Assembly (NCBI GenBank): GCA_964348135.1
Contig: CAYGBL010000002.1
Span: forward strand, 41,048 to 105,047
Length of the DNA stretch: 64,000 nt
Direction of reading: 5' to 3'
Source of the DNA: an uncultured Actinomycetota bacterium
Lineage (GTDB): Bacteria > Actinomycetota > Aquicultoria > JACQXZ01 > CAYGBL01
Part shown: one piece after another, positions 54,691-61,916 of the stretch
How the letters are laid out: every line of letters begins with the position of its first letter
Position numbering within the stretch: position 1 is the stretch's first letter
The notes under the pieces: model-generated
Databases searched by the model: none
What the model was told of the DNA's origin: nothing
What the model saw: only the letters and a program-made list of their open reading frames with translations
Made by a program: the position numbers and the translations under genes

Positions 54691-54734
54691 CTCGAATTTT
54701 TATAGTCCCAGATAGACACCCAGACAGGCAATCA

Positions 54735-54768
54735 AAAGGACAGCCTTATGGCTGTCCTTTTCATTTTG
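54735..54768 (+). terminator. Rho-independent terminator
   Basis: The stems AAAGGACAGCC and GGCTGTCCTTT enclose a TTAT loop, followed by TTTCATTTTG. Confidence 0.7.
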
Positions 54769-54838: not shown

Positions 54839-54914
54839 TGGAGCGGGCAACGGGACTTGAACCCGCGACCTTCAGCTTGGGAAGCTGACGTTCTACCAAC
54901 TAAACTATGCCCGC
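54839..54914 (-). tRNA. tRNA-Gly (anticodon CCC)
   Basis: The minus-strand sequence is GCGGGCATAGTTTAGTTGGTAGAACGTCAGCTTCCCAAGCTGAAGGTCGCGGGTTCAAGTCCCGTTGCCCGCTCCA. It folds into a cloverleaf with a 7-bp acceptor stem, a U33-CCC-A37 anticodon loop, a TTCAAGT T-loop and an encoded CCA. Confidence 0.85.
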
Positions 54915-54987: not shown

Positions 54988-55467
54988 TTAAAGTTCAGTT
55001 TCAAGTCTCTTCTTTCTAACTCTCTCTAAAATAAACATTATTCCGCTTATAACGCTTAGAACCGCTCCTGCTATTACCTGTTTCCATGAAATAGTATGGG
55101 CTACCTCATAACCGTAAGTTATAATTTCTAATTCCTCAACATGGATATCCAGATCTCCGCCATGTTGAGTACAAGCTCTATTGAATACTCCTTTAACCCT
55201 TAGTTTATCACCTCTAAATTTATAATTTCCCTTATAAATAATTTTTCGAGCTTCTGACATTTTCATCCAAAGACCTATTGCACTTTTTCCGTCGTGCACA
55301 TTAACCCATGCAAAATTACTCCTTCTCATCACATCACCAATAACTTCTCCTTCATAAGTTACCATCTTTCCATCATATTCTTTAGCCTTTTCAATAAGAT
55401 CAATCGAAGATACAGCTTCAGCCCAACTGATCCATGTTAAAACAAAAAAAATAACCAGAATAAGCAT
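54988..55467 (-). CDS. Membrane-anchored OB-fold (BOF/YgiW-like) protein encoded immediately after trkH
   Basis: An N-terminal signal/TM is followed by KEYDGKMVTYEGEVIGDV...FAWVNVHDGKSAIGLWM, a YDG...V.G.V...F.L.DG.G.I pattern. A C-terminal TM is also present. The ORF track extends the ORF to 55554, overlapping trkH; the probable start is at 55467. Confidence 0.5.
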   Translation of the reverse strand: MLILVIFFVLTWISWAEAVSSIDLIEKAKEYDGKMVTYEGEVIGDVMRRSNFAWVNVHDGKSAIGLWMKMSEARKIIYKGNYKFRGDKLRVKGVFNRACTQHGGDLDIHVEELEIITYGYEVAHTISWKQVIAGAVLSVISGIMFILERVRKKRLETEL

Positions 55468-55478
55468 ACATGTAGCTC

Positions 55479-56984
55479 TCAACGACCTCTCACCCCGGCA
55501 ATAATGATTCCGAGCAGCGCAGATACAGAGAGAAACTCTAACCTTCCCGCCCACATTTGTAAGATGAAAACTATTTTAAGGAGAGCAGGCATCTGCGGTG
55601 ATGTTATCCCTGCTGTCAACCCGACGTTAGCTGTTGCTGAGACAGATTCGAATATAGCCTCTCCAAAGCTGTAGCCATAGTACATAGAAAAGAAAGCTCC
55701 TAGTGTATAGGAAGTAAAATAGGCGATAGATATAAACATGACATTACGCACATGTTTATCCTCAAGGACCACATTACGCAAATGATGATATGTTTCTACA
55801 ACTACTGCCGATGGAGGAGAAATTAGTCTCTTTACTTGCCGTAGAAAACTTTTAAATATTATTCCAATTCTCAAAGCCTTTACCCCTCCAGCGGTTGATC
55901 CTGCGCCTCCTCCTAAAGCCATAGCAATAGTAATAGCACCCATAGCAAGGGATTTCCATTCCAGAGGAAACTGCCTGGCATTGATTGTCATAAATCCGGT
56001 ACCACTATGCGCGGATAAAAGCTGAAAAAAACCTTTTCTGAAAAGACTAGCTATGCTGGTATAGGCTTCTAACTTAGTCAGGGCCAATGTAGCAACAACA
56101 AAAGTAAGGAAAATGGTTGAAGTTAGCGAGAGTACCTCGATATTTCTAAATAATTCTCGCCGGTTATTGTTCCAGAGAGCATAGTGTAATCCAAAGTTGA
56201 GAGTCCCGGCAATCATAAGAGGGAAAACAACTATTTCGTAGGGCAAACTGTGAAAATATAGAATGCTTTGCGATTGAGGTGCGAATCCTCCTGTGTCGAA
56301 AGCGGCCATAAATATATACAATCCCTGCATCAATGCTCTAACTGGCGGAACTCCTTCCAGAATTCCTACCAGCCAAAGCGCAGAGCTTCCTACGATCATA
56401 TAGGTAAAGCTTACCGTCCAAATAAAACGAGCAGTCTGGATTACATTGGGGAGAATCCTTTCTTCCCTTGCTTCGCTTTCATACATTGTATAAGCACCAG
56501 GAAGCATTCCACGCGTGAAAAGGGTCAGAGCTGCAACTACAATTCCCTGACCTCCAATAAAGTGGGTTAAATGTCGCCAAAAATTTATTCCTTGTGGAAG
56601 ATGATCTATATCTTGAACAAGTACTAACCCCGTAGTAGCAAAGCCACTCATAGCATCGAAACTCGCGTCCAGAAAGCTTCCAAAGTGACCACTCAAGTAG
56701 AGAGGGATGGCTCCCAAAGGCATCGCAACTAGCCAGGTAACAGGTACTATAATTAATCCATGCAGCCATTTAATATCCTTGACAACCGGACACAATAAGA
56801 GAAAAAAATATCCCACGATAAAACTTATGGAAGCACCTATTACAAACCATATGGCAACTGCCCACTCGGCAAAAAAGAGCGACACTATTAGAGGAAAGAT
56901 CATGGCAATGCCAATACCAACTATGAGTCTTCCCAAATAATGACCTACTGTCTTAAGATCTTCGATCCTTGGGCGCCTAAGCAT
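55479..56984 (-). CDS. trkH: TrkH/KtrB-family potassium uptake transporter
   Basis: A polytopic protein with repeated M1-P-M2 units and glycine-containing selectivity-filter segments (TTGL, TGF, NVGL). Confidence 0.85.
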   Translation of the reverse strand: MLRRPRIEDLKTVGHYLGRLIVGIGIAMIFPLIVSLFFAEWAVAIWFVIGASISFIVGYFFLLLCPVVKDIKWLHGLIIVPVTWLVAMPLGAIPLYLSGHFGSFLDASFDAMSGFATTGLVLVQDIDHLPQGINFWRHLTHFIGGQGIVVAALTLFTRGMLPGAYTMYESEAREERILPNVIQTARFIWTVSFTYMIVGSSALWLVGILEGVPPVRALMQGLYIFMAAFDTGGFAPQSQSILYFHSLPYEIVVFPLMIAGTLNFGLHYALWNNNRRELFRNIEVLSLTSTIFLTFVVATLALTKLEAYTSIASLFRKGFFQLLSAHSGTGFMTINARQFPLEWKSLAMGAITIAMALGGGAGSTAGGVKALRIGIIFKSFLRQVKRLISPPSAVVVETYHHLRNVVLEDKHVRNVMFISIAYFTSYTLGAFFSMYYGYSFGEAIFESVSATANVGLTAGITSPQMPALLKIVFILQMWAGRLEFLSVSALLGIIIAGVRGR

Positions 56985-57204
56985 GAAACCAACCTATAAG
57001 CAGCACAACTACAAAAGCTAGTATTAAGAGAAAAATTGCGAAGGTAATAGTAGTCAAAATTCCGAGAATATACATGACTATCATAGGTAGCTTTTTCTGA
57101 GAAAAGACAAACAAGTTTAATCCCCGCATTTTAATAAATTTATCAGGTTTTTCTATGACCTGCGTAACAAAGATTTTCTACTTAGTTTTTCGAGGTTCAG
57201 CAGT

Positions 57205-57704
57205 CTAAGCCCTTCTAAGGCAAAGTCTTCTGTCAAAGATAAAGAGAATTCCAGAAACAACAATTAGTACTACTGCAAGCACGACTCTTCCCGTCTTTAT
57301 TGTATGCTTAATTGTATATTCGCTTTTTATTTTCTTGAGAGATGTGACATGGATATCCATATCTTGCCCATGCTGGGCGCAGGCTCTATTAAACACCCCT
57401 CTATTTTAACTGTGTCGCCATGGTGCTCATAGTCCCCTTTTAGACCGATAATTTGAACCCTCTCCTTGGGTATCCATATGCCTGTAGCATTGACTCCATC
57501 GCTCACATTTATCCACGCATATCTTCCGCGTACCATTATATCTCCTACCACTTCACCTTGATACAAAACTCTTTTACCGTTAAACATCCTGGGATTCTCA
57601 ATCAATTGAGTGCTGGAAACAGTCTCTGCTGAAGCGGTATTGGAAAAGGATGAGGCAAGAATTAATACCTGAAGGGATACCATGAAAAGACAAAGTATAA
57701 CCAC
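57205..57704 (-). pseudogene. Frameshifted paralogue of the BOF-like membrane protein (split into 125-aa and 63-aa ORFs)
   Basis: The N-terminal part (57327-57704) and the C-terminal part (57205-57396, FNRACAQHGQDMDIHV) both match the 54988-55467 protein. The frames join at a G4 (plus-strand C4) tract at 57402-57405, where the intact frame would need one more G. Confidence 0.6.
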
Positions 57705-58041
57705 TCACAAGATCGAAAATTACATCCAGGTATGATAAAAAATGACCGCTAAGATAGTGGGGAACTGCACCAAGAAACGTTGCTGCGACCCATGATGTTG
57801 ACACAACCACTAGTCCCTGGGTCCAGGTTAAATCCCTGGCTGGCTGAATTGCAATGGTAAGTATGAAACCGACAATAAAACATAATGTTGCTCCAATTGT
57901 AAAGTCTATAGCAGCAGACCACTCCTGGAAGAATAGACAAGTAATAAGGGGAACAAGCATCAGCAGACCAGCGCCGATAATTATCTTCCCAATGAAAAAC
58001 CCAATAACTTGAAAGTCTGCTACTCTTGGCCTAAGGAGCAC
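57598..58041 (-). pseudogene. Truncated trkH fragment (N-terminal ~110 codons of a TrkH paralogue)
   Basis: MLLRPRVADFQVIGFFIGKIIIG...YLSGHFLSYLDVIFDLVSG matches the first ~110 residues of the intact TrkH and then diverges and terminates. Confidence 0.6.
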
Positions 58042-59448: not shown

Positions 59449-59833
59449 ATCTATCCGCCTCCCTGGAATGCAAAAGACCTTTATCCCAATTGAGCAAATA
59501 TTTAGGCTTTCAGTGGATAAAGGCCGTTTACCTTTTCATATAAACAATCTTCCTGGATCAGTTGGAAAAATTCTTTGCTAATCTAGGGTATCATAGTACT
59601 CTGTATTTACGCTGTCAATAACCTAAAGTCACTAAATACGCTTATGAAATTTTAAACAATGACTGGTGACTCATTTCAAGGTTTATCATATTCTTGCTAT
59701 CTCCTCGTAAAAATGGTTTTGCTTCTCTTGAGAAGGCTCTTTCATCTGGTAATGTTTAACAAATATGAATGGCATAAACCCACTGTTATGTTAGATTCTT
59801 AATATTTTTTGATACTTTGTGATATTTTTTTCA

Positions 59834-59862
59834 TTGACTATAGATGCCAAAAGTCCTAAAAT
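59834..59862 (+). promoter_or_regulatory. Sigma-A-type promoter (TTGACT-17-TAAAAT) driving the M-box leader
   Basis: The -35 TTGACT at 59834-59839, a 17-nt spacer, and the -10 TAAAAT at 59857-59862. Confidence 0.6.
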
Positions 59863-59879
59863 TATGCAGACAAACCAAT

Positions 59880-60100
59880 ATCCGTTAGGTGAGGCAACTG
59901 CTTGAACATAGGCCACTGCCCGGAAATGTCTAAAGACGCCAATGGGTAGAACAGGTATTACCGGCTTAAGGTTTTACCTAAAGTGGCTCCCCACCAGAGT
60001 TGGGGTTACGTCATGTAGTGTCAAAGCTAAACGAGGGAGGAAGATAAAACAAAATATTACTTATCCTTAACCTTTCCTCGGAAAGGTTTTCTTTTTGTAA
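59880..60100 (+). promoter_or_regulatory. M-box (ykoK leader) Mg2+ riboswitch with intrinsic terminator expression platform
   Basis: GTTAGGTGAGGC...CTGCCC..AAATGTCTAAAGACGCCAATGGGT..AACAG...TAAGGT...AGTG.CAAAGCTAAACGA matches the conserved M-box blocks of the B. subtilis mgtE leader. A terminator (CCTTTCC-TC-GGAAAGG plus TTTTCTTTTTG) lies at 60071-60097, just before the mgtE SD site. Confidence 0.85.
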
Positions 60101-60113
60101 GGAGGTGAAAATA

Positions 60114-61916
60114 ATGCGTGTTTACTTGACCCAATTGCTAAATAAGCCCGTTTTTGATTGCGAAGCCAGGTTTCTTGGAAAGATAAGCGATATAGCCGTA
60201 ACCACTGGCGAGATCTTTCCCCGAGCATCCAGTATAGCTCTTGCTAAGGATAAAGAACCTTTTATGCTTTCCTGGACCTTTGTTAAAGCATTCGATGCCG
60301 AACATATTGAGCTAAGTGCGAAGCAAAACGAGCTCAAACTCACTTTTTTACAGCCTAATGAAATTCTTCTTAGCCGTGACCTTCTAGATAAACAAATAGT
60401 AGATACACAAGGATTAAAGGTCGTAAGAGTTAATGATCTTAAGCTTACTCAAAGCGATAGTGAGCTTCGTCTTTTAGGTGCTGATGTTGGAGCTAGGGGA
60501 GTCCTGAGACGTTTGGGGCTAGAGAGGGCAGTTGATTTTCTGTCAAGACCGTTCAGATTTAGGCTTCCTGAAAATTTGATAGCCTGGAATTATATAGACC
60601 TTCTGGAAAAGGATTTATCAGCGGTTAAGCTCTCCGTCAGCCATAAAAGATTAAATGAACTCCATCCTGCTGACATTGCTGACATTCTAATTCAGCTTGA
60701 TCAGGTACAAAGAACCAAAGTTTTCCAATATCTTGACAATATCAGGGCCGCTGATGCCATTACAGAGAGTGAACCCGATCTCCAGAGTAGCTTGTTTGAA
60801 AGTTTAGACAATGAACGCGCTTCTGACATCTTGGAGGTTATGCCTCCTGATGACGCTGCTGATATTATCGCCGGGCTTCCCTATGAAAAGGCTCAGATTC
60901 TGTTAAATCTGATGGGAGTAAAAGAGGCTTCAGACATTCGCAAACTGCTTGGATATAAAGAAAATACAGCAGGTGGAATCATGACTACCGACTATATTAC
61001 AACCAAAAATAGTCAAACTGTTGAGGACACAATAAAAAGATTAAGAAGCTTAGCTCCTGACCCTGAAACAGTATCATATGTATATGTGGTAGATGACAAC
61101 AATGTACTAACTGGAGTTCTTCCTTTAAGAGACCTTGTAATGGCTTCAGCTGAGACTCGGGTAAGTGCAATTATGATTCCAGAAATTATTAAAGTAAGTG
61201 TAGACGATGATCAGGAAGAGGTAGCTAACAAGATTAGCAAATATGACCTATTGGCAGTCCCAGTGGTCGACGAACAAGAACACCTTATGGGAATAGTAAC
61301 TGTTGACGACGTACTGGAAGTTATGGAAAAAGAGAGTGTAGAAGACATCTCGATTCTAGCTGGAACACCCTCTCTTGCTCTCAAAACAAAACCAGCGGTT
61401 TCCCTAATCCAGCGCTCCGGGTGGTTAGTTATTCTTCTATTGGCTGGCGCCATCACCGGCACTATTCTCAAAGCATATTCACAGCTTCTTCAGTCTATGA
61501 TAGCCCTTGCTTTCTTCATTCCTTTAATTATCCGTCTTGGCGACGATATAAGCATCCAATCCATTGCGCTTATGCTTCAGGCGATAAAGACGGGAGAGGT
61601 TAACCGGTACCAGATTTTAAAGAAAACACTCGGTGATATAGAAGTTGGAGTCTTTATCGGCGTTATTTCAGGAATAGTAGTTTGGGTGCTCACTCTTCTG
61701 TGGAAACTCCGCCCTGATTTAGGTGCAATAATCGGTGTATCTTTAGCAGTAACCGCAGCCTGTGCTTCAATTATTGGCACACTGATTCCAATTATCCTGA
61801 ACAGATTTAACATTGACCCATCCTCCAACTGGGGCCCGGCAATCACTACTTTTGTAGGAGCACTAGGTCTCTTAATTTATTTAGGAATTGCAGCACTCTT
61901 TCAATATAGTTTCTAG
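60114..61916 (+). CDS. mgtE: Magnesium transporter MgtE with N-terminal PRC-barrel-like extension
   Basis: The SD site AAGGAGG lies 8 nt before the ATG. The sequence has MgtE_N and tandem CBS domains (VYVVDDNNVLTGVLPLRDLV, LLAVPVVDEQEHLMGIVTVDDV) and five C-terminal TM helices. An extra roughly 150-aa N-terminus resembles the PRC-barrel proteins in this window. Confidence 0.85.
   Translation: MRVYLTQLLNKPVFDCEARFLGKISDIAVTTGEIFPRASSIALAKDKEPFMLSWTFVKAFDAEHIELSAKQNELKLTFLQPNEILLSRDLLDKQIVDTQGLKVVRVNDLKLTQSDSELRLLGADVGARGVLRRLGLERAVDFLSRPFRFRLPENLIAWNYIDLLEKDLSAVKLSVSHKRLNELHPADIADILIQLDQVQRTKVFQYLDNIRAADAITESEPDLQSSLFESLDNERASDILEVMPPDDAADIIAGLPYEKAQILLNLMGVKEASDIRKLLGYKENTAGGIMTTDYITTKNSQTVEDTIKRLRSLAPDPETVSYVYVVDDNNVLTGVLPLRDLVMASAETRVSAIMIPEIIKVSVDDDQEEVANKISKYDLLAVPVVDEQEHLMGIVTVDDVLEVMEKESVEDISILAGTPSLALKTKPAVSLIQRSGWLVILLLAGAITGTILKAYSQLLQSMIALAFFIPLIIRLGDDISIQSIALMLQAIKTGEVNRYQILKKTLGDIEVGVFIGVISGIVVWVLTLLWKLRPDLGAIIGVSLAVTAACASIIGTLIPIILNRFNIDPSSNWGPAITTFVGALGLLIYLGIAALFQYSF

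Follow-up and report, generated by a model that had tools for sequence, protein, structure and literature searches.

The stretch of DNA analysed here (hereafter the window) comprises 64,000 nucleotides from an uncultured Actinomycetota bacterium and carries a trk operon on its minus strand. The operon opens with two trkA genes, located at 59448-58777 and 58759-58076 (the latter called trkA2), which encode proteins of 223 and 227 amino acids (aa) that each combine a TrkA_N and a TrkA_C domain. This trkA-trkA order matches that of two relatives, L001 (Logan SRR5581519) and L002, and of most of 80 reference loci. A consensus scan placed a promoter-like site before the first trkA at 59590-59618 (minus strand; TTGACA and TATGAT separated by 17 nucleotides, 11 of 12 consensus positions). 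The trkA genes are followed, between 58041 and 57205, by the remnants of a trkH gene (trkH1) and of a small gene that we call X (X1).

Beyond these remnants lies a second set of genes in the same orientation. A 50-aa open reading frame (ORF) with a single predicted transmembrane (TM) segment, s2 (56977-57129), is situated directly upstream of an intact trkH (trkH2, 55479-56984), whose start it overlaps, and an intact X gene (X2, 54988-55467) comes next. The trkH2 product has 501 aa and matches the Pfam TrkH model PF02386 (E=1.2e-45) from position 30 to position 488 of the 502-position profile. Compared with its L001 counterpart, it shows 86% aa identity and a dN/dS of 0.06, and the corresponding dN/dS values are 0.25 for X2 and 0.40 for s2. 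The X2 product (159 aa) consists of a leader helix, an OB-fold domain and a C-terminal TM helix. We refer to each trkH-X pair with its small ORF as a module. Module 2 looks functional, judging from the full-length Pfam match of its TrkH and its low dN/dS.

The operon is bordered on its 3' side by a minus-strand tRNA-Gly(CCC) gene at 54839-54914, a flank that is also kept in L001 (9140-9259, 84% nucleotide identity). Just past the tRNA gene, a G+C-rich plus-strand hairpin of 12 bp with a T-run occupies 54734-54761. On the other side of the operon, an M-box (magnesium) riboswitch (Rfam RF00380, 59874-60045 on the plus strand, 136.8 bits) resides directly 5' of mgtE (60105-61916, plus strand), whose product combines MgtE_N, CBS and MgtE domains with a PRC-barrel domain at its N-terminus. 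The intergenic stretch is 82% identical in nucleotide sequence to that of L001, a value above those of the flanking genes, because the M-box riboswitch is located there. A small minus-strand ORF at 59791-59916 that overlaps the riboswitch is probably spurious. From the promoter-like site of the first trkA to the tRNA-Gly gene, the same scan detected no terminator-like site on the minus strand, and it recorded a weak promoter-like site just before s2.

Remnants of a trkH-X module

The trkH1 remnant (57696-58041, minus strand) begins with a GTG start codon at 58041 and retains codons 1-116 of a gene that formerly had about 500. A preliminary description of the locus had correctly recognised the retained start, but it put the surviving portion at about 110 codons. 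The remnant forms part of a 147-aa ORF (58041-57598) that is 43% identical to residues 1-117 of the intact TrkH of module 2 (BLASTP, E=2e-37) and, over the first 117 codons, 74% identical in aa sequence to TrkH1 of L001. Past codon ~117, after the residues SGYT (at about 57696), no TrkH similarity is evident in the ORF. Its last 31 codons (57598-57695, stop at 57598) form an out-of-frame tail, ...SGYT|LSFHGIPSGINSCLILFQYRFSRDCFQHSID*, that overlies the 5' end of the X1 remnant in another frame. A Pfam search returned no match for the 147-aa ORF. TrkH transporters are built from four pore-forming M1-P-M2 repeats and comprise about 480-500 aa. With 116 of ~500 codons, the trkH1 remnant cannot form a pore and does not qualify as a TrkH transporter.

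The X1 remnant is divided between two reading frames on the minus strand. Its N-terminal part (57400-57683), of about 95 codons from a retained ATG at 57683, reads MVSLQVLILASSFSNTASAETVSSTQLIEN...GDTVKIEG in frame 1 and comprises the hydrophobic leader and most of the OB domain. The C-terminal part (57205-57395) continues in frame 3, two bases on and thus equivalent to a one-base backward shift, as VFNRACAQHGQDMDIHV... to the stop ending at 57205. Its frame-3 translation, GVFNRACAQHGQDMDIHVTSLKK...IFDRRLCLRRA*, includes the FNRAC..HGxDxDIH motif and a C-terminal TM helix, with a TAG stop codon at 57207-57205. Between the two parts, at a boundary of glycine and valine codons, lies a run of four nucleotides (57396-57399, GGGG on the coding strand and CCCC on the plus strand) that is one base short. 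With one base added in GAGGGGTG, the gene encodes 159 aa and shares 44% identity with the intact X of module 2 over 149 residues (E=5e-49); like the TrkH match above, this lies far outside chance similarity. The repaired protein reads ...KIEGVFNRACAQHGQDMDIHV... where the intact copy has ...RVKGVFNRACTQHGGDLDIHV..., and the remnant shows 57-59% aa identity to the intact X1 protein of L001 (P0001).

The preliminary description had thus rightly identified a second trkH-X pair that lies upstream of the intact genes in the same order and is disabled, as well as a split of X at a G4/C4 tract. However, it located that tract 6 nucleotides away, at 57402-57405. It also held that the intact sequence would need one more G. 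One additional base does restore the frame, but the glycine codon at this position is GGT in the orthologues of L001 and L002, and the lost base therefore need not have been a G. The GGGG run may be the product of a 1-nucleotide deletion rather than its cause. Programmed -1 ribosomal frameshifting at GAG GGG U was considered and rejected, as inspection revealed no slippery heptamer of the form X XXY YYZ.

An intact relative and the origin of the two modules

A search with the repaired X1 protein identified L001, in which the mgtE neighbourhood is accompanied by divergently transcribed trkA-trkA genes and then by two complete modules, in the order trkA-trkA-trkH1 (500 aa)-s1 (56 aa)-X1 (164 aa)-s2 (42 aa)-trkH2 (501 aa)-X2 (165 aa). 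Because both modules are intact in L001, the remnant in the window is a decayed gene pair, and the earlier claim of pseudogenisation is borne out by a large deletion, a frameshift and an intact orthologue at the same position. The retention pattern differs among the three genomes: module 2 alone appears to work in the window, L001 has both modules intact, and L002 has module 1 alone.

The s1 and s2 ORFs encode small proteins (42-56 aa) with a single TM segment and a common YxLGILT motif, and neither s2 nor the s1/s2-type ORFs in general match any known family. The s1 ORF is situated between trkH1 and X1 in L001 (5831-6001) and L002 (4351-4494) and is deleted in the window, whereas s2 lies 5' of trkH2 in the window (56977-57129) and L001 (6821-6949). 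The other 76 loci with this linkage showed no small YxLGILT ORF separating trkH from X.

Alignment with L001 defines the extent of the loss. The DNA is colinear between window 59620-57695 and L001 2779-4703, between window 57639-57186 and L001 6060-6514, and between window 57114-55006 and L001 6821-8932. The left alignment register ends at window 57695 (L001 4703), and the right register is clear from window 57639 (L001 6060). In the T-rich leader that separates these points, two registers fit almost equally well, such that the breakpoint is placed within 57684-57700 (minus strand) and not to the base. One register implies an in-frame fusion of the trkH1 fragment to X1, followed by a +1 insertion ahead of the ATG at 57683, and the second requires an indel of 3 codons in the X1 leader. 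Relative to L001, about 1.30 kb is absent, comprising trkH1 codons ~117-500, the trkH1 stop codon, the 56-aa ORF s1, and the first codons and ribosome binding site (RBS) of X1. The deletion is therefore not the internal trkH loss of about 1.1 kb proposed earlier, as it runs past the end of trkH1 into X1. A short microhomology (ACC / TAYMC) at the junction is possible and would be compatible with a simple deletion. Repeat collapse between the modules was rejected as its cause, because the trkH and X segments that meet at the junction have no homology.

The spacer separating X1 from s2 also differs in length, at about 75 bp in the window (57130-57204) and about 325 bp in L001 (6496-6820). This difference reflects either a second deletion in the lineage of the window or an insertion in L001.

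The two modules are only distantly related to each other. Their proteins are 43-44% identical, and their DNA shares a single 57-bp stretch of 77% identity and nothing else. In contrast, TrkH1 of L001 lies at a distance (d) of 0.19 from the TrkH of L002, its nearest relative, with that of L016 next. The TrkH proteins of module 2 (window and L001) lie at d=0.76 from those of module 1, which is also the median distance that separates either of them from the TrkH proteins of other phyla. In neighbour-joining analyses with 200 bootstrap replicates each, modules 1 and 2 formed an exclusive clade once for TrkH and 22 times for X. These distances and bootstrap values indicate that relatives with a single copy carry the orthologue of the dead module, and that the survivor is a divergent extra copy. 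The pair thus stems either from an old duplication or from lateral transfer of module 2 rather than from a recent duplication that can be dated, and both of these origins fit the comparisons. With one 57-bp match between the copies, the alignment recommended earlier for dating a duplication cannot provide a date.

The age of the inactivation can be bounded in another way. Synonymous sites are saturated between the window and L001 (dS 0.8-3, and above 1.2 where set against the age bound). With L002 as the outgroup, the rates on the window branch can be compared with those on the L001 branch. The dN of the window branch is about 1.8-fold that of the L001 branch for the trkH1 N-terminus and 2.3-fold for X1; the control gene trkA2 is likewise elevated about 2-fold, and the relative-rate signal is thus modest. 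Whole-branch dN/dS values of the remnants are 0.14 and 0.19, which are below 1, albeit with dS saturated. Of the 50 columns conserved at 90% or more, the repaired X1 protein departs from 10, including a G-to-Q change in the HGGD motif; this is the highest number in an alignment of 121 sequences, for which the mean is 1.3. No in-frame stop codon is present within the 828 nucleotides of the remnants. As neutral change should create about 31 stops per unit of divergence, the neutral divergence since inactivation is below approximately 0.10 substitutions per site (P=0.05). Inactivation would accordingly be a recent event when set against the divergence from L001. The loss of module 1 is placed after that divergence and no more finely, since a metagenome scan with the trkH1 fragment for closer relatives with an intact module 1 gave one contig end (L086) and two distant matches, and a protein search with the fragment gave the window's own ORF alone.

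Competing explanations and a proposed history

Both lesions are reproducible. The junction and the G4 run are identical in three other assemblies, L003 (Logan ERR2564004), L004 (NCBI GCA_012975005.1) and L005 (Logan ERR2564001), which have 0, 1 and 0 mismatches to the window, respectively. Because both lesions recur in these assemblies, an error private to the assembly of the window is excluded. The window and these three assemblies represent one population, which is the scope of this comparison among strains, and the lesions could still be private to that population, as the four assemblies are compatible with this. A more general sequencing or assembly artefact, in which the true genome would carry an intact trkH1 and X1, can be imagined for a sequence derived from a metagenome, where homopolymer errors and repeat collapse do occur. 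We regard it as very improbable. The lesions agree base for base in assemblies from two runs and a separate NCBI entry, and a run of 4 nucleotides is not error-prone on short-read platforms. Moreover, a collapse would lack a substrate, given that trkH codon ~116 and the X leader are non-homologous and that the modules have almost no DNA identity.

The suggestion in the preliminary description that the G tract might act as a reversible slipped-strand switch, whereby slippage between 4 and 5 nucleotides turns the X paralogue on and off, has even less to recommend it. The frameshift in X1 does resemble those of contingency loci in that it falls in a short mononucleotide run and one base restores the frame, here a frame of 159 aa with all family motifs. 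However, slippage-prone homopolymers in contingency loci are typically 7 nucleotides or longer, whereas this tract has 4, shows no length variation among the four assemblies of the one population, and may stem from loss of a base other than G in a codon that is GGT in L001 and L002. Further lesions are also present. X1 bears at least two, namely the loss of its start codon and RBS and the frameshift, and even in frame it would lack its native start signals and have near-invariant residues replaced. Its cognate trkH is deleted as well. We therefore consider a phase-variable switch to be scarcely credible.

Recent duplication offers another account of two adjacent modules with the same gene order and orientation. 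The preliminary description had interpreted the remnant as a partial tandem duplicate of the downstream trkH-X pair, one that was never complete and then decayed. However, the upstream module is complete in L001, the copies share next to no DNA identity, and they are not each other's closest relatives, as module 1 clusters with the modules that L002 and L016 carry in single copy. Furthermore, two modules within 8 kb occur in none of 80 species-representative loci (the best 80 of 551). Such an origin is consequently very unlikely. Somewhat less remote, yet still improbable, is co-option of the 147-aa product, or of an N-terminal X1 fragment, as a membrane or secreted modulator of the remaining Trk system. 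The trkH1 ORF keeps its start codon and an upstream context like that of L001, the remnants are free of in-frame stops with an overall dN/dS below 1, and the lack of a terminator-like site between trkA and the remnant in the scan means that the remnant is probably transcribed. Recent inactivation would also leave open frames and a low dN/dS, however, and the raised dN on the window branch and the exceptional number of broken conserved columns in X1 speak against co-option. In addition, the truncated form was found in no other genome. A search of 5.8 billion proteins with the trkH1 fragment returned solely the window's own ORF. The trkH fragment may nevertheless retain some residual expression or function, given its start codon and open frame of 147 codons.

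Very probably, then, the segment from 58041 to 57205 is the non-functional fossil of a once complete trkH1-s1-X1 module that was lost by ordinary gene decay. Under this reading, the ancestor would have had the arrangement trkA-trkA-trkH1-s1-X1-s2-trkH2-X2 that L001 has today. A single deletion of about 1.3 kb, probably associated with a short microhomology, would have brought codon ~116 of trkH1 next to the opening codons of X1, and in doing so removed about 77% of trkH1, all of s1, and the start codon and RBS of X1. Once trkH1 was gone, X1 would have been released from selection and would have drifted, later losing one nucleotide at the glycine-valine boundary to leave GGGG, although these events might have occurred in the reverse order. 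Potassium uptake would now depend on the divergent s2-trkH2-X2 module, whose transcription presumably either starts at the trkA promoter and reads through the remnant or starts at the weak site before s2. The remnant itself would serve at most as a transcribed spacer.

This history parallels differential paralogue retention in several respects, including a functional homologue next door, a large deletion plus a frameshift, an intact orthologue elsewhere and apparently faster aa change on the affected branch. It departs from that pattern in that the dead copy is the orthologue of the single copy in relatives, whereas the divergent copy was kept. Redundancy between the copies is also an assumption here, the two being as far apart as TrkH proteins are across phyla. 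The remnant provides a clean example of the loss of a paralogous transporter module, and the finding in itself carries little weight; its unusual detail is that the copy of ancestral type is dead and the divergent copy is alive. A practical consequence concerns annotation. The gene callers of the independent assemblies report just the 147-aa and 86-aa ORFs at the remnant, and 58041-57205 should be marked as pseudogenes rather than as hypothetical proteins of these sizes.

Gene X and its linkage to trkH

Gene X belongs to a sizeable family. An indexed search at E≤1e-5 retrieved 2,707 proteins, an exhaustive search gave 1,295 clusters at 50% identity, and 551 loci were located in species-representative genomes. 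The best 80 of these 551 loci derive mostly from Candidatus Omnitrophota, with some from Planctomycetota and Bacillota metagenome-assembled genomes. In 76 of these 80, X starts no more than about 200 bp past trkH in the same orientation, usually with two trkA genes ahead. Three of the remaining four loci end at a contig edge. The other, L084 (5889-6275), is the sole locus of the 80 with about 5.9 kb of upstream sequence yet no trkH match, and is a possible exception.

Existing models do not capture this family. Neither X copy of the window matches any Pfam or NCBIfam model, and the X family profile finds no match among PDB sequences. The preliminary description had called X BOF-like. BOF proteins (YgiW/YdeI, PF04076) are periplasmic bacterial OB-fold proteins, and an AlphaFold model of X (pLDDT 93.6) likewise shows a five-stranded barrel, which is preceded by an N-terminal hydrophobic helix and followed by a long C-terminal helix. 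X is thus predicted to be an OB-fold protein with a leader and a C-terminal TM anchor. With the leader ending in AEA/ASA and a basic tail after the C-terminal helix, it probably faces outwards, and its small OB-fold domain would be exported behind an N-terminal leader, as in the BOF family. However, PF04076 gave no match to the two window copies at a cutoff of E≤10, nor to any of the 121 family members at a cutoff of E≤0.01, and X differs further by its C-terminal TM anchor and its own invariant Cys/His/Asp-containing motif, FNRAC..HGGDLDIH. The term BOF-like is hence acceptable for fold and probable location alone. Also among the 121 members, none matches tRNA_anti-codon (PF01336), and three have weak matches to DUF4131 (the ComEC N-terminal region). 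NCBI names the family 'DNA-binding protein', a label that is probably a misnomer, given that X is predicted to be membrane-bound and outward-facing.

In having trkH preceded by two half-size trkA genes, each with TrkA_N and TrkA_C, this operon resembles the TrkAH and KtrAB systems. As described, those systems lack a gene for an OB-fold, single-pass membrane protein after trkH, whereas one is present here and in 76 of the 80 loci. No paper that connects TrkH with a protein of this kind was found in full-text searches of the literature. The conserved linkage suggests that X is a functional partner of TrkH. We can propose, with a little less than even confidence, that a widespread potassium system, TrkA-TrkA-TrkH, has in X a fourth component that had gone unrecognised. 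X might bind a cation, or it could act as a gate or sensor for its own TrkH.

As a family of this size for which no model exists, X deserves separate attention and is of more use than the remnant through which it was encountered. If the proposal holds, the loss of X1 together with trkH1 and the retention of X2 with trkH2 would hint that X proteins pair with their cognate TrkH only. Should X indeed be a Trk subunit, it would represent a new component in a class of transporters thought to be well described.
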